NCBI GenBank assembly: GCA_016748015.1
Contig: JAAOMT010000523.1
Span: forward strand, 1,284,546 to 1,348,545
Direction of reading: 5' to 3'
From: Geosiphon pyriformis uo1
Lineage: Eukaryota; Fungi; Glomeromycota
DNA: 64,000 nucleotides
In this document: piece after piece, positions 325-54,137 of the stretch
Position numbering within the stretch: the first letter of the stretch is position 1
Layout of the letters: every line of letters begins with the position of its first letter
The notes under the pieces: generated by a model
What the model saw: only the letters and a program-made list of their open reading frames with translations
What the model was told of the DNA's origin: nothing
Databases searched by the model: none
Position numbers and translations under genes: made by a program

Positions 325-2629
325 GTGTAGATGTCAGTTCCTCAAGTTTAAACAAAAAAATAGCTGTGAGTAACTTGTTGTTGGTAATGGTGGCTGAAAG
401 TATATTGCTGATAAGTGTTTATTTGTGGTTGGATTCTGTTTTGTTGGATGCAGCGTCTTCTGGAGTTATCAGGAGACTTAAATAGTTTTAAGAACTTGGG
501 TTTTAAGTATATCTGGTTCCTGAACTCTGCTGGCATGATCCTGATGGCTGGTTTGAGAAGCTGAGAATTAGTTGGTAGATAACCATTACTGATCTCCAGT
601 TTTGAGTAACTCTGAATCTGGGATTTTCTGATGTCACTTAAGTTGAATTTGGAGTTGAGATTGCTGGTGTCTGATAGATTACTTGTAACTATGGTGGTTG
701 ATAGACTATGGATATTGCTGGTTGATAAATTGATGCTGAAGTCTGATATACTAGAGGTGAGTATAATTGCTGTGTCATTGGGGTTTGATAAATTGGTTAC
801 ATTACTAAAGAGTAATATAATTGAGATTGGTATTGTTCTGGTGATTGATTACTGACGTAATTCTGAGTTTGTAGTTAGCAATTGGAGTTTCAATACTGAT
901 TAGTTGATCTCTGGTCGCTTATCTTTTTTCAACATTCAAATTGCAAATGTTCTTGTTTACCACAATAGTGACATGCATGCATTTCCTGATACCACTGTTA
1001 ATTGGTCAAGGATGATGCTGGATGTGACTGATTTTGGAAGTAATTTTTATTTTCCTGATTGTTGTATCATTGTGGAGATTAATAAATGGCTTGATTGGTG
1101 TTAGCTAAGTATCTCTCTAATTTCTGATTGATTGATTCACTAAATTGCTTTAATTTGGAATCCAATTTAGATGATCCATTCATTACTAGATTTATGGCTT
1201 AGGCATGATTAGTTTCGAGTTTAACTGCTTCAAAATCTCTAGCATTTGTAATGACAACTTGAAGATCTGCTGGATGCATTGAACATACATGTTGGAGGAT
1301 GCTACTGCACAGGCCTCTAATGAATTGATTTAGAATTTGTGGTGCTGTAAAATAATCAGCCTGTATGGTCTGAATTTGGTGCAGATTTCTGTAGAAATGT
1401 CCTAAGTAAGTAGTAACTGCTTCATTTTCTCCTTGCTTAATGGTGGTAAAAGTGTTGGCCAATTGGTTGATGCTATTATTATTACTGAAATATTGTAGGA
1501 ATGCAAGCTTGAATGTATTAAAATCTTGGAGTTTGTTAACCAAGCTTTGATACCATGAATTGGCAGTATCTTGGAGAAAATAGGGGATGGCTTGTATGGC
1601 TCTAGCATTATTCCATCCATTGGCTGTGATGGCTTTTTCCATGTTGTTCAGCCATACTTGGGTGTCATCTTCTTTACTGGTGAACTTTTCAAGTTTTGCT
1701 ATTAGAGTGTAAGCTATTTGATTTAAGTTTAATTGTTGTGATGGTTAAAATGGTAATTGAATTTGAGGTTGCAGTGGTGGCTGTTGTTGTGAAGCAATTG
1801 GTAGTGGGTTAATAACAATTACTGAAGATAAGTGTTGTTGATTATTAATGTTGGGGTTTTGATCGTTTTGATTTTGCTGTATTTGAAAATTTGGAGTTTC
1901 AATTTTCAGGTTTTCTGGAATCGGGTTCTGGTAAGTAAATTCCTAATCTTCGGCTTCTTTTTCTTTTTCTTTTTCTGATTCCATTATTTCCCATGGGTCA
2001 ACTATTCCAAAATTTGGTGGAGGTGGTGGTAATTGGTATTTTGATGGGGTGGTTGATTGCAATTTAAATTCTTCAAAATAATTGCCATAGGTTCCTAATA
2101 ACTCTGCTTTCTTTTGTTTACTTTGAAATAGAAGTCATCCAAATGTTAATGTCATATTTGATGTGAACGTGCCTGTTGATGAGATGTTAATGGCACTTCC
2201 AGATGTATAATGGTATGATGGATTTGTTGGTGGTTCTATTCTTGTTTTCTTTCAAGTTGGTAGTTGTATTCCTTTAGGTGTTATTGCTGGTGTTTGTAAT
2301 CTTCCTTTGCCTTTGTCTGCATAAGTAATAGAAAATTGTTGTTAAGTGTATCTTTTAATGGTTTGGTTGATTTCCTTAATGATTGATGTGAAACTGTGGT
2401 TTCTTGGTAAGCTGGTGTGTTGAAATAATTCTGTATAAAAGTTTTCTCTTACTAATTTGATGTTAATTATTCCTCTTAAGCAGTCTGTGATTTTATCATT
2501 AACGTAGAAGTTGAAGGCTGATTCCACTGAGAAATGATTATTATTTAATCCTAATTGTTGACTGTACTGTTGAAATAAGAATTTGGTGAATTCTAAATAA
2601 TTTGCTCTTATGTTTTCTGGTTCTGCCAC
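325..2629 (-). pseudogene. gag: Element D gag: N-terminal extension, retrotransposon capsid domain, zinc knuckle, low-complexity tail
   Basis: ORFs 2342-2629 and 1199-1642 (ANGW..AIPYFL..W..F...F...IKQGENEAVTTY..F..QFIRGL). CHYCGKQEHLQFEC (CX2CX4HX4C) near 935-978. Several stops. Confidence 0.85.
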
Positions 2630-2691: not shown

Positions 2692-3537
2692 TGTTACAAG
2701 TAATTATTTGGAATCTCAAAGCAAATAACAAACTTGTAACTTGGTGCTCAGTTGATGTAGTAACATTGGTTCTTAAAAATCTGTTGATCTGAAGGGTTTG
2801 TTGTTGTAGAGTTCTTTGTATAATGGACAAAGATTTGATTGTTATTTTTCCAGTAGCCTCCCAGAATTGCAATTCTGTCAAATTTTTTTCTTAGCATGGT
2901 GGCTGGTAATCTGGCAGAGATGTCTTTCTGGTAAGCTTATCCTTAAATTTTCAATTCCTATACTCTTCCTTTGGGGTCTTTTACTAGGCTATCCTTGATG
3001 TTAATAACTCAGTACTTAATCTTCAATTGATTAATAAACAAAGAAATAACAAAACTAAAAGAAATAAAAGAAGACAATGAATGTTAGTATCCCATTAATA
3101 GCCGTGATCAAGAGCTATTGTTCCAGTATGGTTAAGTATCAATTGTTATTAACATAAAATGTTAATAGTAGAAAGTGGATTCGAGATATTGAATAATTAT
3201 TTATTGATATTTGTGATGTGGAAGATCACTTAGATTAAATCTAAACTGAGAGGTCTCTCTTTTCTACTTCTAATGCTACCACTATATATACATAATTGAG
3301 ATTTTTTAATTCCTCAATTTTTCACACCAGGAATTCTGAAATTTCTGGCATCCTGTAATTTCTTTTGAGAAGAATTCTGGAATTCTAGAATTCTGCAATT
3401 CCTTTGTATAAGAATCCTGAAATTCCTGGAATTCTGCAATTTCTCTTGAGAGGAATCTTGGAATTCCACATTTACTATGACTACTTCTGATTGGCTAATT
3501 TATATGCTAATATATTCCCTATATTCTATAAGTAACA
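2692..3537 (-). repeat. 5' LTR of element D (family L2, 846 bp)
   Basis: TGTTAC...GTAACA termini, TATATATA near 3283-3290, and GGAATTC(C/T)-type tandem repeats in U3 at about 3327-3467. Confidence 0.9.
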
Positions 3538-4256
3538 ATGTCAATTACTACTACCACTACTAGATTTCAGAGCTGCTAGTCTTTGGGAATTAACCAACTC
3601 TGAAGAAAAAAAAAATAGCAATTGAAAAATTAATACTCAAAACCTGAAAACTCAGAAATACAAATTTTGACAGTTTAGGCTCAGCAAAACCCAAACAATC
3701 CAAATCCAGCTCTTATTATTTCTCCAAACTTATCTCCAGTAATCATGATCAATCCTTTACCAGTTGCATCAATAGTTGCTCACCAACAACAACTACAACC
3801 TCAGCAGTTACCACAACAATAACCAATGGCCTATGTACCAATTACCAAAATCAAAAAATTTACCAGCAAAAAGAACAATGTCCAAGCATGATTAAACAAT
3901 ATTGTCAAAGCAATTGTAGCCAATAATTGAAACAATATCAGAGCCTTTTAGGCAATCTCATATTTTTTTCAAGATACAGTCAATTTATAATACCAAAATC
4001 TTGTAAACAAACTACAAGATTTTAAGACATTTAAAATCATGTTCCTACAATATTTTAACAATCATAACAGTATTAATTATCTAGCCACTATCTTTACTAC
4101 AATCAAACAAGGAGATACTAAAGCAGTTACTACTTATTTGAGATGTTTCCACAGAAATTTGCATCAGATCCAAGCAATTGAAGTTAACTATTTCATAGTG
4201 TCACAGATATTAAATCAATTTATTCAAGGCCTATGCAAAAGTTTATTGCAATATGT
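3538..4256 (+). pseudogene. gag: Element C gag, first segment (capsid domain)
   Basis: MAYVPITKIKKF...IKQGDTKAVTTYLRCFHRNL...LNQFIQGL, homologous to D gag. Confidence 0.85.
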
Positions 4257-8099: not shown

Positions 8100-9010
8100 T
8101 GTTACCAGAGGTTTTTGGTCTCTTTTCTTAAATATTGGTAATGTTAATTTGCTGTGAATTCACGTTTTCAGGAAGTAGTTGAACCTCCAATAATTGAATT
8201 TATCTTCAAATTATCTCCTATAATTTGAACTGCTGGGCTTATAAGTGGAATGGCCAATTCCTTGCCAGTTACTTTATGTAGTTACATTGTAGTAAACGTC
8301 AACTCTTTCCCAGGAATTGCTCATCTGGAAGCTCACTAAAAATGTGTAGTTACTTTGCTGTAAAAGTCAACTCTTCTACAGAAATCTTGTCTGTAGGCTA
8401 CCCTAATGATTGTAATAAGAAAAAAAAAGGAAAATAAAAGAAATATAAAAGAAATAGAATTTTGTCAAGAGAAACGTTTTCTATCCAGGCCTGGAGTCAC
8501 TAACAGTTTACTGAAATTGGTAGCTAATCAATTTCGAAATGTTAGTTGGATTTTGGGGATTTTCCAAGTACAATAATTAAAGAATTTGGTTTTTTCGAAT
8601 TATTTGATATTTATTTCTTTTTGTGTGTATAGGAACGGTTTTAAGAGATAAATCTAAAGTAAGATACATTTTCCAGAAGAAAAAAGCTCTTCTTTTATAC
8701 AACTTGTTGTAGTACTAGTTTATGAACTTGCACTTTTTTCTCTTTGCCCAAATTCCGGCAAACTAAAGATACATTTTGATGAACTACAAGTTATTTCGCT
8801 GAACNNNNNNNNNNNNNNNNNNNNGGGTATTGTGTAATTTGATCATCCTACTTTCTGTTATACTAATTAGATTATTTTAATTGAATCGTGATATGTGATA
8901 ATTGATTAAATAATAAATAATAATTTGAAATGATATTAATATACTAATGAATTATAGGAATTATAAGGGTAATTTCATGCTAATTAATAGCTAAAATTCT
9001 ACTGGTAACA
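8100..9010 (-). repeat. 3' LTR of element A (assembly gap 8805-8823)
   Basis: TGTTACCAG...CTGGTAACA 9-bp terminal inverted repeat; TATAAAAG on the minus strand near 8692-8699. Confidence 0.95.
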
Positions 9011-9656
9011 TAATCTCCTCCTCAAGACTGAGCTCCGTCGAAATCCAAGCACTATCTGTAATATTGAGATAGTGATCTAAAATGATTGAAGTAATCTGGT
9101 CTGAAAATTGTTGAAATTTCAGTTCTGTGAGTTTGCCAATGTATTGGACTTTCATTGATTGCAGTATTGGATTTTGTAGAACATTTTCACAAGTATTAAA
9201 CAAATCATAGAGTCTAAAAGCTGCTCTAAGTTTGTAGCAAGTGTTTGTTGGTCCAGCTGCTGTTTTGAATTCATTGTAGATTTGTTTTTGTATAACTTCA
9301 GGAGTAAGATTTGTTGCTTCAAGTTCCAGTTTTCGTTCATAAAGTGTTTTTCCAATTTGAAAGTATTTATAGATAGGGGTGTGTTCATTGTTCTGTTTAT
9401 TAAGAAGTAGTAGTAGTTTTTGTTGCATTGTAGCATTTGGTGGAATGTTAATAGGGGCAATTAGCAGATTTTCTTCTAGTGTCTGCTTCAAAAGTCTTGG
9501 TAATCTATTCTCAGAGTGACTTCTTGTTTCTCTTCTATAGAGGTGATAGTTCTGTAAATGATTTGCTACTGGGGCTGTGGTTTTTTTCTGAATGTATTTA
9601 ATTTGACTTCCATTAATCGTTATAGATAAGTCAGGGAGTGTTTTTAAGACTAACAT
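8991..9656 (-). CDS. Element A ORF3: 221-aa protein of unknown function in the env position; stop lies inside the 3' LTR
   Basis: Intact ORF with decayed homologues at the same position in B, C, E and F (motif YFQIGK...AAFRLYDLF...IGKLT). No signal peptide or TM helix seen. Confidence 0.82.
   Translation of the reverse strand: MLVLKTLPDLSITINGSQIKYIQKKTTAPVANHLQNYHLYRRETRSHSENRLPRLLKQTLEENLLIAPINIPPNATMQQKLLLLLNKQNNEHTPIYKYFQIGKTLYERKLELEATNLTPEVIQKQIYNEFKTAAGPTNTCYKLRAAFRLYDLFNTCENVLQNPILQSMKVQYIGKLTELKFQQFSDQITSIILDHYLNITDSAWISTELSLEEEIMLPVEF
9011..9023 (-). promoter_or_regulatory. Polypurine tract of element A (GAGGAGGAGATTA)
   Basis: Purine run immediately 5' of the 3' LTR on the sense strand. 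Confidence 0.85.
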
Positions 9657-9847
9657 TAATTTTTGGGATATTTGTTAAATATTTCGGGGAATAATCATAA
9701 TAAAATTGACTAATTATGAAAAGAGAGAATAAAGAAAATTATTTTTTTTTGGATATGGGGTTTTTTTTATTTGTTTTTGGGTTTGGGTGTTTTGTAATTA
9801 TTTGCTATTTTTGTCTTTGTGTTTTTAGTAGAGAATTATTGTAAAAT

Positions 9848-11233
9848 TTAAGTGTTCAAGTTTGGTTGTTGTTCTATTATAATTATTGGTTTTAAATTTT
9901 GGGGAATATCTTCAGAATTAATTAAAGGAGAATGTGTACCAATTTGTGGAATTAATGGTTCAGGATTGTTTCTGGAATGATAGTGTTTCAGTCTGTCTCC
10001 ATGTGCAACTTTTGCTAATATTTTGTCATCAAGTCTTAACTTATATGATCTATTACCTAGAATTTCGTGAATATAAAATGGTCCATCCCATTTGTTTTCA
10101 AATTTCCCACTCCATTGTTTTTCAGCCTTAGTTCTGTGTAAGAGAACATTATTTCTAACTTTAAATTCGTTGGTAATAGATGGTAATTTGTTGTCATGTC
10201 TTTCTTTTTGTTGAGCTTGGAAATGTTCAATATGAGCTGCTGCTATTCTTCTTTTTCCTTCCAGTGTACTAAGAAGAGTGTAGGCTCTTCTTTGGAGTGT
10301 CTCTTGAAAGTTTTCTTCATTGATTGGTTGCATTGGGTATGTTTCTACTGTGAAATTAATTGGTAATGTTGCTGTCCTTCCATAAGTAAGATCAAATGAT
10401 GTGTGTTTCGTAGTATCTTGTTTTAGTGTTCTGTATGCTAGTAACACTGATGGAATAAAGATATCCCATTCCTGTTCAAAGTCTGTTGAGACTTTGGCTA
10501 AAGATTCACACAATGTTCTGTTGAAATGTTCTACAAGTCCATTTGTTTGAGAGTGATAAGGTAATGATAGAGGTCTTTTAACATTGAACCGTTCACAAAT
10601 TTTTTGTATCAAGTTGTTCACAAAATGTGTTTCTTGATCAGATAAGAGTTCAAATAGGCATCCATGTCTACAGATAATATCTTCATAGATGAATTTTGCT
10701 ACTGATTTTGCATCTGCTCTTTGGATGACTCTAGCTTCAAGCCATTTGGTAAGATAATCCACTGCAACTACAATATAATGATTTTCTTGGGTTGTGATAG
10801 GTAATGGTCTGACTAAATCAATTCCAACTCTGTCAAAAGGTTGTCCAACTTTGATTGGATTTAAAGGTTCTGTGAGGTGAGTTCCTCTTCTTCTTTGGCA
10901 GTTATCACAAGATTCTACATATTGTCGAATGTCTTTTTGCATGTGAGGCCAAAAATAATGTTCAAGGGTTCTTTGAATTGTTTCCTCTTTTTCCAAGTGT
11001 GCTGAAGACGGATCTGTGTACATGTTGTATAATATTGTTTTTTTTTCATTCTCTTGTACTAATCTGAGTGGCTGGTTTGGTTTTCTGTGATTTTTATAAT
11101 AAATTTTATTCTGGTGTATGAAATATTGTTTTAATTGGTGTTGTAAGTGGTGTTTTTTACTTGGAGACCAGTTTTCTGGCATGGTAAGGGTCTCCAAATA
11201 ATTTTTAAGATTGCTGTAGTTTCTGGAGTCCAT
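9848..11233 (-). CDS. int: Element A integrase, stand-alone 461-aa ORF (zinc finger, DDE core, GPF module, no chromodomain)
   Basis: H...YFWPHM...CDNCQ; VGIDLV, LLSDQETHF, NGLVEHFN; KWDGPFYIHE...SYKL. Open frame but with likely damaging substitutions (first zinc-finger His appears as Tyr). Confidence 0.93.
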   Translation of the reverse strand: MDSRNYSNLKNYLETLTMPENWSPSKKHHLQHQLKQYFIHQNKIYYKNHRKPNQPLRLVQENEKKTILYNMYTDPSSAHLEKEETIQRTLEHYFWPHMQKDIRQYVESCDNCQRRRGTHLTEPLNPIKVGQPFDRVGIDLVRPLPITTQENHYIVVAVDYLTKWLEARVIQRADAKSVAKFIYEDIICRHGCLFELLSDQETHFVNNLIQKICERFNVKRPLSLPYHSQTNGLVEHFNRTLCESLAKVSTDFEQEWDIFIPSVLLAYRTLKQDTTKHTSFDLTYGRTATLPINFTVETYPMQPINEENFQETLQRRAYTLLSTLEGKRRIAAAHIEHFQAQQKERHDNKLPSITNEFKVRNNVLLHRTKAEKQWSGKFENKWDGPFYIHEILGNRSYKLRLDDKILAKVAHGDRLKHYHSRNNPEPLIPQIGTHSPLINSEDIPQNLKPIIIIEQQPNLNT

Positions 11234-11290
11234 TCTTGTTTGGTTATTTTGTTGGTAAGTTGGTAAGTTGTGGTGAAATTGTTGTTGGTA

Positions 11291-12664
11291 TTAATCTTGT
11301 CTCATTTTTGAGAGGCTATCGACATTGGTATGTAGTTTTCCTGGTTTGTGGTGTACAATATATTTGTAGTCTGCTAGGAAGTCATTCCATCAAGACTGTT
11401 TGGCACTCTGTTCAGTTTTCTTTTTATTGAGCCATTTGAAGCCAATGTTGTCCGTTATTATGTCAAATTCTTTTCCATTTTTCAGATATTGTTAAAAATG
11501 TTTAAGAGCCCAAATAACTGCAGCAGCTTCCAATTCAGTTGAGCCATATTTGAGTTCTGTTGGCTTGAGTGTTCTGCTGGCATAGGCAATAACTTGTTCT
11601 TGGCCATTTTCATCTAATTGTGATAAGATGACACCAAATACTATATGTGAGACATCAGTGGCTAATTGGAATCATTTGTTGAAGTCTGGGTAAGCAAGAA
11701 CTGGGGCTGTTGTCAATTTTGTTTTGAGAATTTCAAAAGCTTTTTGTTGTTCTTCAGTCCATTTGTATGGTATGTTTTTGTTGGTAAGATAATTGAGTGG
11801 TTTGGCAATTTCTAAGAATCCTTTTATGAATTTTCGATAGTAAGAGGCTAATCCCACAAATCCTCTTAGTTCTGTAGTATTTCTGGGGGTTTGAAAGTTT
11901 TTAACAGCATTGATTGTTCCTGGATTTGGTTTGATTCCATCTTTACTAACTATGTGTCCAAGAAAGATCAAACTTGTTTTTCCAAAGTGACATTTCTCAA
12001 TATTTAACTTTAATTCTGCTTTCTGTAATCGTTGAAAAACTTCTTGCAGATGAATGAGATGGGCTTCAAAGCTTGGTGAGTATACATCAGTATCATCAAG
12101 ATAAACAACTACTAATTGCCACAAAAGCCCTTCATAGACAACATCCATGAGTTGCTGAAATGTTGCTAGTGCATTGCAGAGTCCAAAAGGCATAACATTA
12201 AACTCATAATTTCCTTCTTGAGTGGTGAATGCTGTTTTGGGTCTATCTTTTGGGTCCAATTCGACTTGCCAGTATCCACTTTTCAGGTCTAAAGTTGAAA
12301 AAAACTTGGCTTTTCCCAGAGCATCTAGCATGTTATTAATTCTTGGAAAAGGGTAGGCATTTCCAATTGTAACACTATTCTGTTGTCTATAATCAACACA
12401 GAATCTAATTTTTTCGTTTTTCTTTTTAACTAAAACTACTAGTGAGGTCCAAGAACTTCTTGATGGTTGAATCAATTCGTTATTGAGCATTCTTTGGATC
12501 TCTTCTCTGATAAATTGGTGGCTGGTAGGTGGCACTCGATAAGCTTGTTGATGTTTTGGTAGAGCATCTCCTGTATGGATCTGATGTTGAACAATGTTTG
12601 TTTTTCCCAAGTCATTGTTGTCTTTTGCAAATATATCTGCAAATTCAGCTATCAATTGTTTCAA
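11291..12664 (-). pseudogene. pol: Element A reverse transcriptase plus RNase H domain
   Basis: IRFCVDYR, FSTLDLKSGYWQ, TAFTT, VMPFGL, VVYLDDT, FLGH, GFVGLASYYRKFI. RNase H continues in frame past 11672 with stops. Confidence 0.95.
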
Positions 12665-13135
12665 TTGTCTTTGTTGTTAAGGTTCTAAGGAATCCATATT
12701 AATTCGAGAGAGTTTTTCTTCCAACAAGTGGTAGTTTTCAGTAGTGGGAATGATATTTGTATTTGGGAGTAGAGTGTGCTTTATAATTTCGATGAATTTA
12801 GAGACAATTTGAGAGTTTTCATCTTGAAAGATATTGCTGTGTATGATTCCAATTTCTAATTTGTTTAATAAAACAATAGGGTAATTATTGGGGTTGTAGA
12901 ATGTAACTCAAAATTTTTTTATTCCTTTGGGAATATAAACATTTGGAATTGATATTTCATGCTTCAAACAGATTTGTTTATTGGATTCAAAGATTTGTTG
13001 TGTAGTGGTGGGTTTTGAGCAAGTGTAAATTTCGTGATGTTTTCCAAAAAGTGAAATGGTAATTGGCTGAGGAAGTTGAAGAATCTGGTGAGATTCATTT
13101 TGTGTATTAAGAACTATGTTTACTGGAACTGTAAA

Positions 13136-13510
13136 TCATCCAGTTGAACCAAAACCTTGAGTTCCTCTTTCACTTTTTCCCAATTGTTCTCTGTTGTTTA
13201 CTGATTGTAAACCCGAAATGTTGATTAAGGGTAAGTAAATTGCTTGAGCAATTTTTTCAGCATGTTCAATTTTGAATGGTTTGTCTGTCTCATTCTGTAA
13301 CATGATGGTAATGTCTCCAGTGTATTCTGTATCTATAACTCCTCCTCTAATATTGATTCTTTTGCTTGCCAATGATGATCTGGAGGCAATTTGAACCATT
13401 GCTTCTGGTGGAATTTTAAGAGCAATTTTTAAATTGATTTTTGTCAAAGACTTTGGTTGGAGAATCAAAGTATCTTTTTCTGGGTATCTCAAGTCATATC
13501 CAGCATCAAT
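13136..13510 (-). pseudogene. dut: Element A dUTPase domain within pol
   Basis: All five trimeric dUTPase motifs: DAGYDL, ASRSSLA, GGVIDTEYTG, KIAQ, RGTQGFGSTG. Confidence 0.95.
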
Positions 13511-13689
13511 TTTGTGTGCTTTTTCTGGTCTGATTCCTTGGCCATGGTTGTCAAAATATTTAAGATGTAGAGGTGGTTGCTTTTCAAGAAGATAGATGGG
13601 AGTGGTTGGTAGTTCTTCTACTTATTCAGATACTCCAAATTCGATTTCATTTTTATCATTCTCATCTGGCAGAGGAATGCTAAGAGCAT

Positions 13690-14290
13690 AACATTCTAAA
13701 CACCATTGGTCATCACAAAGCCTAACACATTCTTCACACAATTAAATGTTCATTTGCTCTAATCGTTGAATTTGAGCTTTTTTGGTCGGATATGTGTGGC
13801 TTGCAATTTGGTGGTAGGTTTCTACTTCATCTTCATAATCAAATCCAGCTAATTCCATAGTGTACTCAATATATTCGGCTTCTTTCATTTGGTGGACATC
13901 TTCTTGAGTGGCTCTATTGATTAATGCCATTGCTAGGTCAAAAATCATTTCAGCATCATAAGAGTAGTGGTAAAGTTTATTGAGAGCACTGTTGTATGCT
14001 GCATCAAATGGTGTCTCTCTTCTGACTTTTTCCGAGATTGATAGAGCATATTGACAGGTTTGATCACATACTCCTCCTCTCATTGCTACATCAATCCAAT
14101 TGCATTCTTCTGGTAGTATTTCTCCACATGTAAGACAAGGTGTGTTGTCCCATTTTCCACTTCTTTTTGGAGATCCAAATCGTTTTCTATGGCATGCTTT
14201 GCAAAAGTAACAGGTACAAGTTTCATATTCCTCTTCTAGAGAAATACATGCTTCCATTGATGAAAGTTTTTTGTTGCAATCTTTGCATTT
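13690..14290 (-). other. Cys-rich domain of pol between protease and dUTPase (putative Zn-binding)
   Basis: CKDC..CKAC..CLTC..CDQTC...CEECVRLCDDQWCLEC, with the same spacing visible in B, C, E and F. Confidence 0.75.
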
Positions 14291-16940
14291 GAGTGGAATA
14301 TAGAGTGGTTGTTTCTGTGGTTCTGGTGTAGAATATCTAACTTTTTTTCATCCCCTTGATTCTTTGAAAATCTCTTGTTCGGTTTCTTCAGCCCAATTGG
14401 ATGTTGATCCAAGAGCCATGTAGGTTTTAGTAAGTGGCATTTCTTTCTCCTCTTCAAATTCAAATACTGGAGCTTTTTCTGATCATTTATTAAAGGTATT
14501 ACAGGTTGCAGGTACTATAGTATATTGTCCTTGGTATGAGATTTTAAGTTCTTAAGTTTCCCAGTTCAGGTTTGCATTGGCCTTGAGAAGCCAATCATTT
14601 CCAACTAGAGCTTGGTATTGGGGTGCATCCATAATAAGAACTTTAACTGAAATGGTGATTCCATCAATTGAAAAAGGGAAATCATCAATTTCTCCTACTG
14701 GAGTCTTCTTCATATCATCAGCTGTGACAATAAATGTTTAAGCTGGTCTGTTTACGTTTTGTTTAAGTTGTTGCATCAGCTGGTAAGTGATAATACTTCT
14801 AGCTGATCCACTATCTAAGATTAAGCAAATGGGTTTTTCTTCTACTGTAGCTTCTGTGTACATGGCAGTAATTGCTTTCTGTTCATTGACTGCTGCATTA
14901 CTAAGCAGAAATGGTGATTCATTTGCCTCAAATTCAAATGGAAATATATCTGACAGATTAGCATTTTGGGCAATTTGAGCTGGGAGAATGGTGTGGTTGG
15001 AAGAGTTTGATCTTGGTGCTGCAATTTCACCTTCAGAAAGTGCAGTTTGTTGAAAATCCGATTCTTCTGGTATTGTAAGATAACTGGGTTGAGTGTGATA
15101 GTAATTGGGTCTTTGCTGGCCCGAATTTCTGGGAACCAACTGGTTATTTGGATTGATTCTGTTGTGGTTATTCTGCAATTGATTCTGGGGTGTGAATTGG
15201 TTATATTGAACCAATTTTCTTGCTAGTACTTGATATTGTTGAGTGAGTGGTGTCTGATATGGCTGAATTGGTAAAGGTTGCTGATATTGTTGCTGCATTG
15301 ATTGTGGAGCTGGTAGATAGTAACTGTTTTGATTTTGTGGTCTTGGTGAATAATAAGTTGGTGGTGGAGATTGGTAATAGGATTGTTGTGGTGAAGAGTA
15401 ATGTTGATTACTCCTGTTTTGTTGGTCTCTTTGTAATTTTCTACAATCTTGTTTCCAGTGTCCTGGAATTCCACAATAATGACAATTTTGAGATTGGTTG
15501 TTGGATGATGATCTAAAATTGTTTTGGTTGTGTTGTTGTGGGGGTTGATATCTTTCTGGTTGTTGTTGCTATTGTTGTTGGTTTGTGAAGTAGCTTTCAA
15601 CTTTTTTTGTGAGTTGGTTTATCTTTTCTTCAGCTGCTGAGCTGGTTTTTCCAATTGCAAGGTTTACAAGCTTGGTGTGATTTACTTCTTTCATTGCCAT
15701 TTCATAACTCTTTGCATGTTTAATAGCAGTTGCTAAGTCTGCTGGAGCATGTGGATGGACTTTTTTAATCAGTTTGTCTTTTAACCCTGTTATAAACTGA
15801 TCCAGAATTTGAGCATCAGAATAGTAGTCATTGGTTTCCAATTGTCGGATTCATCTAAGAAGTTTGTTAAATCTTCTGAGATAGGTTATAACAGATTCAG
15901 ATATTTCTTGTTTGATATTGCAAAAGCGGTTTCTGAGAGTGATAGAGGTATTGTTGTTGGTGAATTGTTATAGAAAAACATTTTTAAATGCTTGCCAGTT
16001 TTCAAATGGTTCTTCTAAATTTTCAAACCATTCTTCTGCTATTCCTTGGAGAAAGTAGGGAATTGCTTTGAGCATTCTTGCTGCAATCCAACCATTTGCA
16101 TCTCCTGCTTTTTGAACTTTGTCCAGCCATTCTTGGGGACTGGTATCATTGTTTTCACCAGTGAATTCTGGGATTTTTGCAATGTAAGCAGTTGCCATTT
16201 CTTCTTCATTTTCTGGAATTTCTTCTGGTTCTGATTCAGTTTCTTTACTTTCTAAGCTTTCTGAGTGATTACTTTCGTTTTCCTGTAAGTAATCAATGAT
16301 GTTGGCACTTGTTGATATTGGTTCTTACTGTTGAGTAGGATTTCTAGGTGACTGAAAATCTTCTGGTCTGGAGAAATGGCTAAGTAGTGAACTTGGTGTT
16401 TGTGGTTAAACAAGTGAAATTGGAAATGGTGTAATAGAAAGTGGTAATTTGACACTGGTTTCTTGTTTAGGTGTTTGCAAGTGTTTGGCAGTTGTCTTTT
16501 GTAGTGTTAGAGTGTTTGGAGTGGTTCTTGAGTATTGCTTCAATCTTTGTTTGCCTTTATTGCTTGTTTTTGTCTCTAATTCAAACTCAAAAGAGTATTT
16601 ACACTGTACTGGGTATTTTTCTTCACAATACTTAATAATATTAAAATTAAGTTCTTGGAAGTAGATAGCAAGTGTTTCACTGTTCAGGTCTTCTGTTCCC
16701 AAATGTGAATAATGCACTAAATTATTGTAGAGGTTGCTTCTAACTTCTGAAATGTTGTAGTTTCCAAAAAGATAATTGTTGATGCAGTTTTTAATGTATT
16801 GGTATACTGATTTCTTTACAATTTCAATTCCGTCTGAAATGTTGAATCTTTGCTTGCAGTGGGTGTAAATTAACTGGTAATACTCTAGAGTTGCTGTGTT
16901 TGGTATGGTCGCCACTTTGAATTTGTTGTTGCTGTGTTAT

Positions 16941-16958
16941 TTCCATGGGAGAGCACCA
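16941..16958 (-). promoter_or_regulatory. Primer-binding site of element A (TGGTGCTCTCCCATGGAA)
   Basis: Starts TGG 2 nt after the 5' LTR end. Confidence 0.85.
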
Positions 16959-16960
16959 AA

Positions 16961-17964
16961 TGTTACCAGAGGTTTTTGGTCTCTTTTCTTAAATATTGGT
17001 AATGTTAATTTGCTGTGAATTCACGTTTTCAGGAAGTAGTTGAACCTCCAATAACTGAATTTATCTTCAAATTATCTCCTATAATTTGAACTGGTGGGCT
17101 TATAAGTGGAATGGCCAATTCCTTGCCAGTTACTTTATGTAGTTACGTTGTAGTAAATGTCAACTCTTTCCTAGGAATTGCTCGTCTGGAAGCTCACTAA
17201 AAATGGGTAGTTACTTTGCTGTAAAAGTCAACTCTTCTACAGAAATCTTGTCTGTAGGCTACCCTAATGATTGTAATAAGAAAAGAAAAGGAAAATAAAA
17301 GAAATGTAAAAGAAATAAAATTTTGTCAAAAGAAACGTTTTCTATCCAGGCCTGGAGTCACTAACAGTTTACTGAAATTGGTAGCTAATCAATTTCGAAA
17401 TGTTAGTTGGATTTTGGGGATTTTCCAAGTACAATAATTAAAGAATTTGGTTTTTTCGAATTATTTGATATTTATTTCTTTTTGTGTGTATAGGAACGGT
17501 TTTAAGAGATAAATCTAAAGTAAGATACATTTTCCAGAAGAAAAAAGCTCTTCTTTTATACAACTTGTTGTAGTACTAGTTTATGAACTTGCACTTTTTT
17601 CTCTTTGCCCAAATTCCGGCAAACTAAAGATACATTTTGATGAACTACAAGTTATTTCGCTGAACTATTGATTAATNNNNNNNNNNNNNNNNNNNNNNNN
17701 NNNNNNNNNNNNNNNNNNNNNNNNNNNTTCGGCGAATTTCTGTAAATTTCGGCAAATTTTTGAATGTTACAAAGTTCAGGGTATTGTGTAATTTGATCAT
17801 CCTACTTTCTGTTATACTAATTAGATTATTTTAATTGAATCGTGATATGTGATAATTGATTAAATAATAAATAATAATTTGAAATGATATTAATATACTA
17901 ATGAATTATAGGAATTATAAGGGTAATTTCATGCTAATTAATAGCTAAAATTTTACTGGTAACA
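16961..17964 (-). repeat. 5' LTR of element A (assembly gap 17677-17727)
   Basis: Near-identical to 8100-9010. Confidence 0.95.
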
Positions 17965-18095
17965 TTGGAAACCAATTTTCTGGCATAGTAAGAGTCTCCA
18001 AATAGTTTTTGATATTGTTGTAATTTCTGAGATCTATTGTTGTTTGGTTATTTTTGTTGATAGGTTGGTAAGTTGTGGTAGTGTTGTTGTTGGTA

Positions 18096-21000: not shown

Positions 21001-24000
21001 ATAAATTGCTTGAGCAATTTTTTTAGCATGTTCAATTCTGAATGATTTGTCTGTTTCATTCTGTAACATGATTGTAATGTCTCCAGTGTATCCTGCATCT
21101 ATAATTCCTCTTCTAACATTGATTCCTTTGCTTGCCAGTAATAATCTGGATGCAATTTGAACCATTGATTCTAGTGGTATTTTAAGAGCAATTTTGAGGT
21201 TAATTTTTGTTAAAGATTTTAGTTAAAAAACCAAAGTGTCTTTGCCAAGATATCTTAAATTATATTCTGCATCGATTTTATGGACTTTTTCTGGTTTTAT
21301 TTCTTGTTTATTGTTGTCAAAGTATTTGAGTTGTATAACAGGCTGATTTTTAGTAAGATAGATTAGAGTTGTTGTAATTTCTTTTTCTCTCTTAGATTCT
21401 CTAAATTAAATTTTCTTCTGGTTATCTTTGTTGAGTAGGAGAATGCTAAGGGCATAGCATTCTGAACACTCTTTGTTATTACAAGGCATGATACATTTTT
21501 CACACAATTGAATGTTCATTTGTTTTAATTGTTAAATTTGAGTTTCTTGGATTAGATAAGTATGACTTGCAATTTGGTGGTATGTTTCTACTTTATCTTC
21601 ATAGTTAAATCCAGCTAATTTCATTGTGTATTCAATGTATTCAGCTTTCTTTATTTGGTGGACATCTTTTTATGTGGCTTTATTGATCAAAGCCATTGCT
21701 AAGTCAAAGATTATTTCAGTATCATAAAAATAGTAGTAAAGTTTGTTGAGAGCACTGTTGTATACTGCATTGAAGAGTGTTCTTTTTCTGACTTTTTCTT
21801 AAATTGATAGAGCATATTGACAGATTTAATTACATACTTCTTCTCTCATTGTAACATCAATTCAGTTGTATTCTTCTGATAACATATTTCCACATGTGAG
21901 ACAAGAAGTGTTGTTCCATTTTCTACTTTGTTTGGAATATTCAAATCATTCTCTATGGCATGCTTTACAGTAGTAATAGGTGTGAGTTTTATATTTTTCT
22001 TTTGGAAAAATACATGCTTCTATTGATGAAAGTTTTTTGTTGCAATTTTTGCATTTAAGTGGGATGTAAGATGATTGTTTCTGTGTTTCTGGTGTAAAAT
22101 ATCTAATTACATTTCATTTTCTGGTCTCCTCAAAGATTTCTTGTTCTGTTTCTTCAGCCCAATTGAATGTTGATCTAAGAGCCATAAAGGTTTCAGTAAT
22201 TGGTAATTCTTTTTCCTCTTCAAATTCGAATACTAGAGCTTTTTCAGATTTTTTATTAAAAGTACCACAGGTGGCAAGTACTTTGGTATATTGTCTTTAG
22301 TATGAAATTTTTAATTTTTGGGTTTTTCAGTCTAAATTTGCATTGACTTTGAGAAGCCAATCATTTCTGACAAGAGCTTGGTATTGAGGTGCATTTATAA
22401 CTAAAATTTTGACTGGAATTGTAATTTCATCAATGGTAAATAGGAAGTTGTTAATTTCTCTTACTGGTATTTTTTTTATATCATCTGCTGTAACAATAAC
22501 TGTTTGGACAGATCTGTTAACAGTTTATTAAAATTGTTGCATTAATTGATAGATAATAATAATATTAGCAGATCTATTGTCTAGATTGGTTTTCTTTCTA
22601 CTTCAGCTTCAGTATATATAGCTGTAATTACTTTTTGTTTATTAACTGCTGCATTGCTAAGCAAGAATGGTGATTCATTTGCTTTAAATTCGAATGAGAA
22701 TATATCTGAAAGGTTGGTGTTTTGGGCAATTTGGGCTGGTGGAATAGTATTGTTGGAAGGGTTTGATTTTGGTGTTGTAGCTTTACCTTTAAAAAGTGCA
22801 GTTTGTTGAAAATTCTGTTCTTCAGACATTGTAAGATAACTGGATTGAGTGTGATAGTAATTGGGTTTTTGCTAACCAGAATTTCGAAGACCAACTGGTT
22901 GTTTAAGTTGATTCTGTTGTTGTTATTCTAAAATCAATTTTGAGGTGTAAATTGGTTTTGGTAAACCAATTTTTAAGCAGATATTAGACATTGTTGAGTA
23001 AATGGTGCTTGATATTGCTGAATTGGTAAAGGTTGCTGATATTATTGTTGTATTGATTGTGGAACAGATTGATAGTAATTGTTTTGATTTTGTGGTCTTG
23101 GTAAGTAATAAGTTGGTGATAGAGGTTGGTAATAAGATTGTTGTGGTAAAAAGTGATATTAATTACTCTTATTTTGTTGGTCTCTTTGTAGCTTTCTGCA
23201 ATCTTATTTCCAATGTTCTGGAATTTTACAATAATAACAGCTCTGTGGTTAACTGTTTGGTAATGATGAGTAGTTGTTTTGGTTTCATTGTTGTGATGGC
23301 TGGTATTTTTGTGTTTGTTGTTGCTGTTGTTGGTTGGTGAAATAGTTTTCAACCTTTTTTGTAAGTTGGTCATATTTTTTTTTCAGCTGTTGAGCTGGTT
23401 GCTCTAATAGCAAGATTTACAAGTTTTGTGTGATTGGCTTCTTCTATAGTTATTTCATAATTTTTTGCATGTTGGATAGCAGTGAGCAAATCTTTAGGTA
23501 AATGTAGATGCATTTTTTTTATGAGTTTATCTTTTAATTCAGTAATGAATTGATTCAAGATTTGGGCATTAGAATAGTATTCATTGGTTTCTAACTGGCA
23601 AATTTTTCTGAGAAGTTTGTTGAACTTCTCTATGTAGGTTATGACTGATTCACTTGGTTTTTGTTTGATATTTCAGAACTGATTTTGAAGGGTAATAAAT
23701 GTGTTGTTGCCAATAAATTGTTGTAAAAAAGCATTTTTGAATGCTTGCCAGTTTTCAAATGATTTCTTTAAGTTTTCAAACTATTCTTCAGCTGTTCCTT
23801 GGAGAAAATATGAAATTGTTTTGAGCATTTTTGCTGCATTCCATCTATTTGCATCTCCTGCTTTTAAGACTTTATCAAGCCATTTTTGGGGGTTGGTATC
23901 ATTATCTTCATCAGTGAATTCTGGAATTTTTGCAATATAAGCAGTTGCCATTTTTTCTTTGTTTTCAGTGGTTTCTTCTTGTTCCAATTCGGTTTTTTTA

Positions 24001-24668
24001 CTTCCTAAGTTTTCCAAATGATTACTTTGGTTTTTTTCTAAGTAATTAAGAAAATTGGTGCTGGTTGATATTGGTTTCTGTTGTTGAGTAGAATTTTTAG
24101 GTAACTGAAAATCTTCTGGTTTTGAGAACCAGATAAGTGGTAAGTTTGGTGTTTGTGGTTAAACAAGTAAAATTGAAAATAATGTAACTGAAAGTGAAAG
24201 TTTGGTGCTGATTCTTTGTTCTGAAATTTGCAAGTGTTTGGCAGTTATTATTGGTGTTTTTGGAATGGTTGGAGTGATTCTTGAGTATTGTTTCAATTTT
24301 TGTTTGCTTTTGTTGCTTGTTTCTGTTTTTGATTTAAAGTCAATAGTGTATTTGGACTGTACTGAATATCTTTTTTTACAATACTGAATAATGCTAAAGT
24401 TAAGTTCTTAAAAGTAAATGTTAAGTGTTTTACTATTAAGGTCTTCAATTTTCAATTGTGAATAGTGCAATAAATTATTGTAAAGACTGCTTCTAGCTTC
24501 TGAAATGTTGTAATTTCCAAAAAAATAATTGTTGATGTGGTTTTTGATGTATTGGTATAATGTTTTCTTGAGAACTTTAATTCCGTCTTGGATGTGAAAT
24601 CTTTGCTCACAGTAGGTGTAAATTGACTGATAATACTCTAAAGTTGTTGTGTTTGGTGTGGTCATCAT
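18096..24668 (-). pseudogene. gag-pol: Element B gag-pol, including dUTPase at about 20902-21275; interrupted by solo LTR 18408-19377
   Basis: Colinear with A gag-pol: MATAYIAKIPEF, GIIDAGYTG, RGTQDFGSTG, YLDNTNV. Confidence 0.9.
18408..19377 (+). mobile_element. Solo LTR, family L1, in RNase H of B
   Basis: TGTTACCAG...CTGGTAACA, perfect TSD CTGG/CTGG. Confidence 0.93.
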
Positions 24669-34900: not shown

Positions 34901-37900
34901 AATATCTAGTAGCAATTGGTTATTTTTTATTGTCTCTGATACATGTACTCATTGATAACAACTTTTTCCTACAATTAACACAAATTAATTTCAGAGATCT
35001 GTAAAATTGATTTCTTTAATACAGTGCTTGATAATTTGGTGGTAGTATTTAAGAATCTTTATTAGTCTTTCTTTTTCCTTTTTTTTTACAAGTAGAGGGT
35101 GGTGGTAGCTCTGTTTAGAAATCATCCATCCAAGAAACTTGGTATGTTTCTAAGGTTGATTGGGAAATTAGTTTATCAAATTCAATTAAAGGCTGTTTTG
35201 GAGTGGCTATTTGGAAGTGTCCACAGGTGATGAGTACTCAGGTATTTTGTTCTTTGAAAATAATTTGAAGTTTCTGTGTGTTTCAATCTAGAGTAGTGTG
35301 AGTTTTTGTTAGCCAATTATTTTCTATAAAAGCCTAATATTAGGTGGCTTCTATGACAAGCATCTTGGTTGAAATTTGAATACCACTGATTTTGAAAGAG
35401 AAATTATCAATTTCTCTGATTGGAGTTTTGATATTGCCATTTGCAGTAATAATTTAGACAGTGGCAGCATGATCTATTCAGTAACTTAATTGATCTATTA
35501 ACTGTTTTATAATTATACTTCCTGCTAATCTGCTATTGAGAATTAATTTAATGTCTATGTTTTTGACTCTAGCATCAGTGTATATTGTCATGATTGGTTT
35601 GTCCAAATTGATGACAGCTCCATTAAACAGGCTAGTTGTGTTCAGGTTTTCAATTTTAAAAAGGAAAATAACAGCCAAAGTGGTGTTTTCTATAATAGTA
35701 GCAGGTGAAATTGTATTGTTGGTTTGGTTTAAAGTTGAAAGATTGAAAATTTTTTTTATATTTTTCTTTTTTACAAGTGTGATATTACCAAAATTTAGAA
35801 TTTTGATAAGACCAAGATACAAGACTTGATTGGAATATTCAGTTTGTGTTGGTTGAGATATTGTGTTGCTATAATTGATTGGTCTGAATAATCTACTGAT
35901 AGATTATGGTTGATTTCCACTAATGTTTTGTTATCCTTAATTGTAGTTAATTGCTTATAGTTTTAGTTAATAATATATGAGATTTTAGTACTGAAATGCT
36001 AATTGAGCCATTGCTGATGGTAGCTGATAGTAATTCTGGGGCATTTTTTATGAGTACTGTGGCAGTTGATATTGGGGTACTAAGAGTTGTGGTTTTATGG
36101 TCTAAGAATATCTTAGTTGTTGATAATATTGATTTCTTTTGTTTTGGTCTGCTAATTTTTTTTGGCAGTCTCAAACAATATGTCCAGGTTTCTGACAATA
36201 ATAACAACTATAGAGATTTGTTTTCTAGAGTTGTTGTTGCTGCTGACAATTCTGCTGTTATTAATGTTTATTGTTGTTAGTGTTGTCTTTCTGTTAAGAT
36301 GGCTGATAGGTTCTTGTGGTACTGGCTAAAAATCCCTCAATTTTTTGAGTTAATGTCTTACTTAATTGGATTATTTTTGTGTTAATATTTGAAGTTCTAT
36401 TAATGGTCAAGTTAATGGCTTGAGTATGATTGGCTTTTTGCTTTGCTAACTTAAAATTATAAGCAAGAATAACTGTTTCTTTTAGATTTGTTGGGTGGTA
36501 GGGTCTTACTAATTATAGAATACTATTCCTTAATTTTTTAACAAATTGGTTAAGAATTTGTCCAGGGGTGTAATAGTCTCTTTTAATTGTCTAAACCTGT
36601 TAAAAAATTTGATTAAACCATCAAAAATAAGTGGTTATGGTGTTATAGGTGAATATTTGAGGTTTCGAAACAAATAACAAACCCATAATTTGGTGCTTAA
36701 TAACTAATACAGTTGGTAATATCTAAAGGTTTTGATGAATTTAAAGGTTTTGGGTTTGGAGTTCTTTATATAATGGATAGAGATTTAATAATCATGGTAT
36801 ATAAGTTGTTGGTAATGTGTTTCTCAATTTCTTTTTTCAATTTGGTGGCCAGTTTATTCTGACAGTTGTGCTCTTTTGATAAGTTATCCAAATTTTTCAA
36901 TCTATACTCTTCTATTTGGGTCTTTTACCAGATTATCCATGACATCAATTATTCAGTGCATATTCTCTTAATTAATTAGTAAACAACATAAAAACAACAA
37001 AAAAAGAATAATGATTAAAGAAAGATGAAGAAATTAAGCCAAGACAATTCAGTTAGTATCTTGTTAATAGCTATGATCAAGAACTATTGTTTCAGTATAG
37101 TTAAGTATTTATAGTTATCAACATGAAGTGTTGATAATAAAAAGTGGATTAAGATAACAAATAATTATTTATTGATATTTGTAATTTAAAAGATTGTTTA
37201 GATAAAATCTAAACTGAAAGATCTGTCTTTTTTGCTTCTAATGCTACTACTATATATACATAATTTAGGTTCTACAAGATTGCTCATATTTCCAAGCAAT
37301 ATGCTATAATTTCTTGAGCAATACTTACATTACTGAACAATGAACCCTAATTTTCTAATATTGCTCCACATTGCTGAACAATATGCCATAATTTCTGACA
37401 TTGCTCCATATTACTGAGCAATATGCTCATATGCTAACTACTACTCTCCCATTGGTCTATCTGTTTTTCCCACTATTTTTTTTATATATTTTCTTTATGA
37501 ATAACAATGGCTTTATGATTCTTTTGTTTTACTATGTTGAACTGATTTTGTAGTCGAATGAGTGTATTAGGGTTGCAAAAATATTACAAGAAGGCAAGTT
37601 TGAAAGTGGCAAAGTCAGTTGGTTTTTTTTCAAGACTTTGGTATTACAAATTTGCTATTTTTGTTAAAAAAAAAGCAATGCTTAGATTGTTCTGTTATTA
37701 TTCCAATTGTTGATGGTGATTGCTTTCTCAGCTTTTATAATCCAAAAATATGCATTATCTTTTTCTTCAGAAAATTTCTTGAGCCTAGTAATATTTCTGT
37801 AAGTTATATTTTAATTGACTAGAGATAAAGTATTAGTTAAGACTGAGAAAATTAATGGTAGTATACTGTAGTGTTTCTTTGGTGCTAATGCTAGTTGTTT

Positions 37901-52429: not shown

Positions 52430-54137
52430 ATGTATTTCTGTCTGTTTTATTAATTGTTGAAGTGAGATTTCCAAACAATGATCCATATTTTCTTAATGAT
52501 TTGGTCCAACTGTGTTGACCCTAGAGGTCTAAATTTCCAGAAGTTTGTGGTGTTTCTAACTGGGTTTCTAGAGATGGGTTGAATACAATTCTACTTTGGG
52601 GTATTTGATGATATAATAGAGTTGTTGGGGAGAGGAACCTTGGTTTCTTGTTAACTGTAAACTTGGCTTGGACAGTTGTGGAGTTGTTGGATTTGTCTTC
52701 ATATTCTTCAAAGTCGAATTCTACTGGTTGTTGTACTTGAAGAAATTGTTTTGTCATGTAATATTTAATATCTGTATCAATTATGCATAGAGTTTCAGTG
52801 ATTGTTCAGGTAGTTGTGGCTGTTAAGTATCTTAATAAGCTTTGATGGATTTGTTCTTTCAGTTTTCCATTATCAGTTGTACAGTCTAATAAGCAATCAA
52901 TTTTTGCATTGATATAGTTACAAAAATCACTTTTTGCATAAGCAGTTTCTACTAATATTTCTAGATTTTTTCAAAAGTATTAAAATAATGCTTTTCTGTA
53001 TAAGAAGTGGTCCTTTTTTACTGTTTCAATAGTTGCCACTTCTGGAGTGCTCTGTCTCTGTGGATTTATAACCTCATAGGAAGCATCAAATATTATAAAT
53101 AAACTTGGTAGAATAAGGAGATAGTAACATTTGGTGCTCTCAATTATTGGTAATGTGTGTTTCATGTAATTCCAATAGCTTAATCTTTGTTTATCAGTCT
53201 CTAAAGATCTTATTTTATTGGTTGTGAATTTACTTGTTGAATTTTTTGGTTATAAGACATAGAGTTTTGGTTTTTGCTAATTGCAACTTCTTATAAAGAT
53301 GAGCTTTCTTCTCTGAACTAATAAGTGCAGTTATTAAGGTCTGGTGTTGTTTTTTTACCTTTCTGGTAAACTATCAAGATAACATTAATATTTAAAAACC
53401 TAAGAAGAACTTCTTGCTTTTACCAGACTATTACAAAGTCTATTCTTAAACAGTCAATTTTACTATGTTGCCACTCCACAAGAAAAAAATAGAAAAAGAA
53501 AAATAAAATAAAATAAAAAAAATAAAATAAAAAAAAAGATAAATTAATATCATCAATCACCATGATCAAGAACAATTGGTCCAAATTGTTAATAGTTTAA
53601 GGTGATTATACTAAAAGCATCTGTTCTAGAACAAAAATACAAAACAATAATTAATTTACATAAATTTCACAAAGTTTGAGAACATAAATTCATGATTCTG
53701 ATTTTTTAAAAATTAATTTATTTCAGAAGATGAATATGGAATATAATAAATAATAAAGAGGTATGGATATGTGATTCTTGTCTAGTGGTTTGTATTTATC
53801 TGTTTGCCTGTTTCTACCTTTTACAACTACTCACTTTTATACATTCTTTTGGTTTTACAGAATTGCTTCTGATTGTTTTATTATTGCTAACTATTGCTTT
53901 GTTATTTTTGTTATTACTTTATTTTCTTATATTATTACTAGTTATTCTATGTTATAGTATATTATCTAGTATTATTATGTATTATTCTGTATTATCTTAT
54001 GTTGTAACACATTATTCTGTACTATCCTAAGTTATAATACATTATCCAATGTTATTGTGTACTATTCTGTGTTATGTTATATTCTGGTCATATTTTTTTA
54101 TAACTTCAGATCAGTTTTTTTACTTGGGTAATAATGC

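Follow-up and report, generated by a model that had tools for sequence, protein, structure and literature searches.

A conserved GTG at the head of a Met-free Gag extension in Ty3/Gypsy retrotransposons of Geosiphon pyriformis, a putative non-AUG start

The window analyzed here, a 64-kb stretch of Geosiphon pyriformis DNA, is filled with nested, decayed Ty3/Gypsy LTR retrotransposons. Element A occupies the minus strand from position 17965 to 8100, and the sequence that hosts it is B, an older copy of the same family. The nest (4257-25691) holds element A and an inverted solo LTR, both within B. Element A is bounded by two direct LTRs with TG...CA ends, which share 98.4% identity across 705 nt (blastn), and it retains a primer-binding site and a polypurine tract (Table 1). 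LTR sequence makes up 41.2% of the G. pyriformis genome (PMC11952901).

The Gag-Pol frame of element A encodes, in order, an N-terminal extension, capsid, zinc knuckle, protease, dUTPase, reverse transcriptase (RT), RNase H, and integrase (Pfam). The order of protease, RT, RNase H, and integrase along one frame is that of Ty3/Gypsy elements, and the RT is assigned by its match to Ty3, the best among solved structures (E 9e-68). Between positions 16915 and 9000, the Gag-Pol frame is interrupted by 18 internal stops; the remaining two frames contain 139 and 193. The capsid of copy D matches Retrotrans_gag (E 7e-12) and Ty3_capsid (E 5e-9), and the broken capsid piece of A matches weakly (Pfam). 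The stretch between protease and RT of A contains a Cys-rich segment, the dUTPase, and then a weak match to the foamy-virus protease (A9) before the RT. The position of env, between the integrase and the 3' LTR, is taken by a separate 227-codon open frame (8991-9674, minus strand) without a Pfam match and without a transmembrane-like appearance.

Table 1 Features of element A and the Gag extensions of related copies in the window.
Feature	Position	Strand	Description
5' LTR of element A	16961..17965	-	TG...CA ends; blastn to 3' LTR
Primer-binding site	16945..16958	-	begins TGG, two bases past LTR end; out-of-frame ATG at 16946
Spacer	16916..16944	-	A/C-rich with scarce T and G; lacks a branch-point motif; -3 base is A
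GTG, proposed non-AUG start	16913..16915	-	context aaaGTGgc
Extension part 1	16601..16915	-	predicted four-helix domain, helices 7-24, 31-50, 55-69, 79-100; acidic
Extension part 2	16199..16600	-	Pro/Ser/Thr/Gln-rich linker, acidic run at end
First in-frame ATG, capsid start	16196..16198	-	gaaATGg; Met-Ala common to three families
Gag-Pol frame of element A	9848..16915	-	2,355 codons, GTG 16915 to TAA 9850, frameshift-free
3' LTR of element A	8100..9011	-	polypurine tract directly before it
Extension in copy B (family A)	23949..24668	-	first two codons ATG ATG
Extension in copy D (second family)	1715..2629	-	304 codons, starts GTG GCA
Extension in copy F (third family)	52434..53039	-	starts GTG GCA; interrupted by solo family A LTR at 52432-51462

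The copies A to G, lettered in a preliminary description of this DNA, do not derive from one element; they belong to three families: A/B/G, C/D, and E/F (families A, D, and F below). The extensions have no blastn match from one family to another. The families have a common layout, consisting of the LTR, primer-binding site, A/C-rich spacer, GTG-GC, a helical domain of about 100 residues, a Pro/Ser/Thr/Gln-rich linker, and Met-Ala, placed five (or four) residues ahead of an IAK motif in the capsid. The solo LTR within the F extension is accompanied by a 4-nt target duplication, and copy D (2692-3540 region) is inserted into the extension of C. CpG is nearly missing window-wide, with 0-13 per kb, yet 34 in the last kb, and the differences between copies are mainly C/T and G/A, as expected from methyl-CpG deamination. 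Since every copy in the window is broken, any mechanism read from them pertains to active progenitors.

Counts at the DNA level below refer to window copies, and genome-wide counts to 413 gene-model proteins, 398 of which were placed in six subfamilies and 284 of which include column 1, the first codon of the extension. Every named homolog is a gene model of G. pyriformis (best 120 of 545 hits, best 120 of 466, and 50 of 50). A profile search of 1.84 billion representatives returned 208 matches; the best 150 included 125 new ones, all in the three known families, and all ten matches checked by name are from G. pyriformis. Metagenome scans and one scan of viral contigs yielded no relative. So far, the feature is known from one species and from dead copies.

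The extension begins with AAA-GTG-GCG at 16915 in A, AAA-GTG-GCA at 2629 in D, and GAA-GTG-GCA at 53039 in F, codons which the preliminary description had read correctly, as it had the G-to-A-decayed starts GTA GCA at 58400 (G), ATG ATG at 24668 (B), and ATA ATG at 38616 (E). Within the 1,200 nt that precede the capsid Met, GTG 16915 is the sole in-frame CTG, GTG, or ACG to combine a purine at -3 with a G at +4. A conserved near-cognate codon in a strong context lies in frame upstream of the Gag AUG. The codon itself is infrequent in A, providing five of 62 Val codons in sampled Gag-Pol segments. The frame was also said to open at the GTG, which does not hold literally: it stays open for about 35 further codons, up to a TGA at 17023. 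These codons contain no Met, and a stop at 16939 in A corresponds to Gln in other copies.

Genome-wide, column 1 is Val in 240 of the 284 gene models, Met in 33, Leu in 7, Ile in 3, and Lys in 1, and Val is the main and Met a minor state in each of the six subfamilies (15-69% identical). The consensus of the first codon is therefore not ATG, as most copies have Val. G-to-A decay converts GTG to a Met codon and the other Val codons to Ile codons; at the majority of other Val columns the decay product is Ile, unlike at column 1, which identifies column 1 as GTG. The Met share is inflated because gene finders prefer ATG starts. In family F, Met occurs at column 1 in just one of 29 models, and GTG in this family therefore rests chiefly on the window copy. 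The codon before the GTG has A as its first base in 238 of 246 models and a variable last base (Lys, Asn, or Thr), while residue 2 is Ala or one of its decay products in all six subfamilies. An A at -3, a variable base next to Val, and Ala at residue 2 form the pattern of a putative start context, with a purine at -3 and G at +4. GUG is a near-cognate start codon that is helped by both of these positions (PMC3542737, PMC5778536), and G at +4 raises GUG initiation five-fold in mammalian reporters (PMC5778536). No conserved or stimulatory hairpin follows the GTG (folding versus shuffles, z 1.59, -0.18, and -0.87).

Upstream of the GTG, the last ~440 nt of the 5' LTR of A contain no fixed ATG (nine LTR copies). 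Fixed LTR ATGs that are not of CpG type lie at least 464 nt from the LTR end (9, 5, and 4 LTR copies); the family F column at 471 is probably of CpG type, judging by its match to the D motif. The 35 nt preceding the GTG of A comprise 18 A, 9 C, 5 T, and 3 G, and fold worse than shuffled sequences (z about +1.6). The ATG at 16946 was considered as the true start and rejected, because it is in the wrong frame and has a CpG-type variant. The LTRs of all three families carry a branch-point-like ACTAAC/ACTAAT motif with a pyrimidine tract 400-455 nt before the LTR end (17406, 3087, and 39103, minus strand). The only fixed LTR ATGs are upstream of this motif, which may mark a leader intron or a polyadenylation element. 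The U5 regions of F (53127-53145) and D (2720-2740) contain the LTR end and the primer-binding site as an inverted copy, and in D an AGCAC motif after the primer-binding site can pair with the inverted U5 copy, giving possible hairpins that mask the primer-binding site.

A rival to be taken seriously is that the start codon is supplied by an upstream exon spliced at or just ahead of AAG|TGGC, for example one ending in A and creating an ATG, in which case the GTG would be part of a 3' splice site. AG precedes TGGC in all three window copies, the LTRs contain ACTAAC branch-point-like motifs, pyrimidine tracts, and donor-like sites, and one splice variant of PEG10 gains an upstream AUG (PMC2800197). 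The GTG is, however, preceded by just three to five T in 35 nt in A, D, and F, and the branch motif is absent from that position in A and F. In seven gene models, six of them in subfamily D2, Asn precedes the Val or Met, which makes an AG impossible there. An intron ending at this site would delete the primer-binding site, and several stops close the Gag frame from the acceptor-like sites in the LTR. Upstream exons in gene models are many and varied, with none dominant; in family D, models read the DNA just upstream of the GTG in differing frames (46, 8, and 20 other; n = 74). We found no splice route to an upstream AUG, a possibility that the preliminary description had named as fatal to its reading. 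The in-frame stop upstream and the missing splice signals argue against an upstream AUG, and we regard a spliced start as quite improbable.

The 239-codon extension of A is coding, with purifying selection on transversions, and it contains no in-frame AUG. The comparison of synonymous and non-synonymous change that had been proposed for the extension was made on transversions between A and B, which amount to 9.7 at 172 synonymous sites and 26.3 at 1,262 non-synonymous sites (ratio 0.37, Fisher P 0.007). The same ratio is 3.5 and 2.1 in the other frames of the domain and 0.13 in the capsid. Stops number 2-5 in the Gag frame of the extension versus 9-21 in the other frames, and those in frame sit at columns that gene models read mainly as Gln, Arg, or Trp. 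In the linker of A, decay-type TAA stops are found at 16408 and 16327. The nucleotide identity of D and F is flat by codon position (44-48%) and thus uninformative on coding.

The extension might instead be an untranslated leader, the relic of a formerly AUG-started domain, with the capsid AUG alone in use. Any scanned leader is expected to avoid ATG up to the capsid Met, and the A/B transitions, which are dominated by decay, reveal no selection (ratio 1.1). Such a leader would not account for the transversion ratio, nor for a reading frame, length, hydrophobic pattern, and predicted fold that are kept in families just 15-31% identical, nor for the retention in every family of a GTG with A at -3 and G at +4. 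We consider it very unlikely.

The extension is predicted to form a four-helix domain on a flexible linker. The domains of D and F can be aligned over residues 1-101 without a gap, with 23% of positions identical (HHalign E 5e-34, probability 99.9) and a score of 183 versus at most 22 in shuffled controls. Homology of family A to D and F is collinear but weak (HHalign E 6e-4 and 9e-4; scores of 26.2 and 25.2 versus shuffled maxima of 25.5 and 19.0), and the best pairs of subfamilies across A and D/F reach pairwise E values of 2e-6 and 2e-5. AlphaFold2 predicts four helices in A with pLDDT of about 90 over residues 11-100 (12 alignment rows), and matching helices in D from an alignment of 24 rows that left out family A, with one of five models above pLDDT 70. 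The domain contains 5-8 Lys and Arg versus 10-12 Asp and Glu.

The domain has no consistent Pfam match and no match by sequence to a solved structure; its models have no Foldseek match at E <= 0.001 and no usable match in the ESM Atlas. VIA-align returned nothing at Z >= 8 for the two models (best 7.3 and 6.4, both generic helical), and neither top 50 includes a matrix protein. The A and D models have 16 of their top 50 VIA-align rows in common, all generic. For the models of 16601-16915 (A) and 2300-2629 (D), VIA-align repeatedly matched capsid proteins with four helices from filamentous viruses of archaea (6wq2, 6v7b, 3fbz, 6d5f), at Z 4.9-5.9 and within the generic range. Missing fold matches do not show the fold of the domain to be new.

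Between the GTG and the capsid, the sense strand of A has no ATG in any frame between 16946 and 16209, and that of B none between 24665 and 23951, in agreement with the preliminary description. No other ATG-free run in the window, on either strand, is as long as these two of 737 and 714 nt. The two out-of-frame ATGs at the edges of the A run (16946 and 16209) are at columns with CpG-type variants in other copies. Two more long ATG-free runs are located on the minus strand at 61234-61869 (635 nt) and 36044-36621 (577 nt). Against 2,000 dinucleotide shuffles, the extension of A contains one ATG where 6.8 are expected (P 0.006), and that of B none where 4.5 are expected (P 0.008); the capsid, RT, and integrase have ATG at or above expectation. 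As a fraction of NTG triplets, ATG accounts for 1 of 24 in the extension of A versus 134 of 354 in its remaining frame (P 2.5e-4), and for 0 of 16 versus 82 of 214 in B. The tests on A and B are not independent, because the two copies belong to one family. Loss of TpG by a RIP-like process was rejected as the cause, since this stretch shows no depletion of CTG, GTG, or TTG.

The codon-shuffled control suggested for this depletion was run on A, where the depletion is significant when codon order is shuffled (P 0.016). Resampling synonymous codons with the protein fixed gives one out-of-frame ATG versus 2.5 expected, which is not significant (P 0.13). The depletion therefore reflects the order of residues and the content of Met rather than the choice of codons. 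Dipeptides able to hide an out-of-frame ATG occur twice in the A extension versus 9.8 expected (P 0.0008), six times in D versus 10.8 (P 0.04), and six times in F versus 9.7 (P 0.09). Met is the majority residue in 0 of 741 columns in the extensions of the three families; in capsids, such columns number 6 of 209 and 2 of 172.

The depletion of ATG is significant in family A, as the preliminary description required, but falls short of significance in copies D and F, whose extensions contain seven ATGs each, some of them in frame (dinucleotide shuffles, P 0.24 and 0.19). The fractions of NTG there are 7 of 22 in the extension versus 24 of 54 in the rest for D (P 0.23), and 7 of 27 versus 61 of 200 for F (P 0.40); in copy E the depletion is borderline (P 0.04). 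An interval free of AUG between the two proposed starts is found in family A, with no significant equivalent in D and F, whose copies are decayed. The ATGs in the D and F extensions are compatible with CpG decay. The capsids show an identical signature, so that a test for CpG decay fails to separate extension from capsid (Fisher P 0.16-0.43; rank test P 0.04).

The first in-frame Met coincides with the capsid start, as had been noted: it is codon 240 of A (16198), lies at 3826 in C, and in B is at 23951, after the decayed ATG ATG start. The capsid IAK motif occurs in 113, 81, and 37 of 120 (A), 120 (D), and 48 (F) gene models; at -5/-4 from it, 113 of 113, 80 of 81, and 36 of 37 of these, respectively, carry Met or the Ile to which that Met decays. 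The capsid Met is lost in window copies D and F.

This Met might be kept for a purpose other than initiation. If GUG were the sole start, Met-Ala could be retained because the protease cuts there, separating a matrix-like domain from the capsid, with one long Gag-Pol as the product. Such an arrangement explains just as well why the extension is coding and why the GTG is present, and it fits the unconserved -3 context of the capsid ATG, which is preceded by a Glu/Asp, Pro, or Ile codon, and the lack of significant ATG depletion in D and F. It gives no reason why avoidance of ATG in family A should end exactly at the capsid Met, and it leaves the absence of Met-majority columns from the extensions unexplained. 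Moreover, the capsid Met moves between -5 and -4 among family A subfamilies yet is never missing. We judge a sole GUG start to be unlikely.

We hypothesize that the conserved GUG starts the Met-free extension and that leaky scanning reaches the capsid AUG, with a long Gag-Pol as the minor product and a short one as the major product; judged from sequence features, this is the probable explanation. 43S complexes would scan from the transcript start in the LTR, and a minority would initiate at the GUG and produce the long form. Initiation at near-cognate codons is placed in a range of 2-30% (PMC3542737). Ribosomes passing the GUG would scan the AUG-free stretch to the capsid AUG and produce the short form. 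As Gag and Pol lie in a single frame, a polyprotein would result from either start, of 2,355 and 2,116 residues in A. The comparative predictions of this two-isoform reading that could be tested all hold in family A. Two families beyond it likewise have the GTG, an extension that is coding, and a capsid Met that is conserved; in their copies D and F, the depletion of ATG does not reach significance.

The short form could alternatively come from a second RNA started internally, as with Ty1i/p22, or from internal ribosome entry, with the long form still made from the GUG. The short Gag of Ty1 is known to come from an internally initiated RNA (PMC5408680, PMC4551931), and leaky scanning would demand that ribosomes, having passed a long LTR leader, scan 700 nt more. 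A second RNA would not require ATG to be avoided throughout the extension and over the final 440 nt of the LTR, and we hold this route to be rather improbable.

Under initiation at both GUG and AUG, the long form may co-assemble with the short one. The N-terminus of the Ty3 capsid protein is a 36-residue arm directed outwards (PMC6525542), and in a co-assembled long form the acidic domain would accordingly sit beyond the shell, held by a long tether. There, in the position of the retroviral matrix, the domain could serve as a low-copy handle for binding proteins. Co-assembly and display on the outside are the most speculative part of the proposal, and the protein-binding role is a guess.

The GTG-headed, Met-free extension is a real and well-supported sequence feature, and the mechanism proposed for it is likely. 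It would also account for the inconsistent upstream exons in hundreds of G. pyriformis gene models. A non-AUG-extended Gag has been documented so far in gammaretroviruses and in the domesticated PEG10; in the open-access literature, we found no report of a non-AUG Gag start in any fungal element or any LTR retrotransposon that transposes, and no paper on the present elements. Conserved extensions with non-AUG starts do occur in fungi, as in cpc-1 (PMC5487733). More tentatively, and with slightly less than an even chance of being right, we suggest that an old fungal Ty3/Gypsy lineage may use GUG together with ~700-900 nt of AUG-free scanning, in place of a frameshift or a splice, to set the number of capsid subunits that carry the four-helix domain in the matrix position, independently of glyco-Gag and PEG10. 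If the GUG does act as a start, the choice of start codon joins frameshifting, readthrough, and splicing as a means of tuning Gag forms, the output of the elements is tied to how strictly the host selects its start codons, and an unannotated domain is revealed where Ty3 carries just a short arm.

The glyco-Gag of the gammaretrovirus MLV, to which the preliminary description likened the extension, starts at a CUG, contains a signal peptide in its extension, and is a glycosylated product absent from virions. The likeness applies to the manner of initiation alone, as the fungal extension has no signal peptide or membrane anchor (best 19-residue Kyte-Doolittle means of 0.79, 0.45, and 0.50 in A, D, and F). 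Glyco-Gag proper was rejected as an identity on account of the Ty3-like RT, the GTG codon, and the lack of a hydrophobic segment. The extension resembles the retroviral matrix protein (MA) in having a helical domain of about 100 residues at the N-terminus of Gag, ahead of a flexible spacer and the capsid. MA carries a basic membrane-binding patch and is myristoylated at Gly-2. The fungal domain is acidic rather than basic, has Ala instead of Gly at residue 2 in all six subfamilies, and has no match to MA in sequence or structure among those found.

The elements share with Ty3 the LTRs, primer-binding site, polypurine tract, the order of protease, RT, RNase H, and integrase, and the Retrotrans_gag/Ty3_capsid domain. 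They differ from it in having 240-300 extra AUG-free residues, compared with the 36-residue arm of Ty3 (PMC6525542), in containing a dUTPase, and in lacking a frameshift. A dUTPase has been described previously in fungal Gypsy elements (PMC2864245). The closest precedent is PEG10, a retrotransposon-derived gene that starts at both CUG and AUG (PMC2800197). PEG10 is a domesticated host gene with a CUG 34 residues upstream and a -1 frameshift, whereas the fungal elements are transposon families that would use GUG to add 240-300 residues, including a predicted folded domain, to a single Gag-Pol frame.
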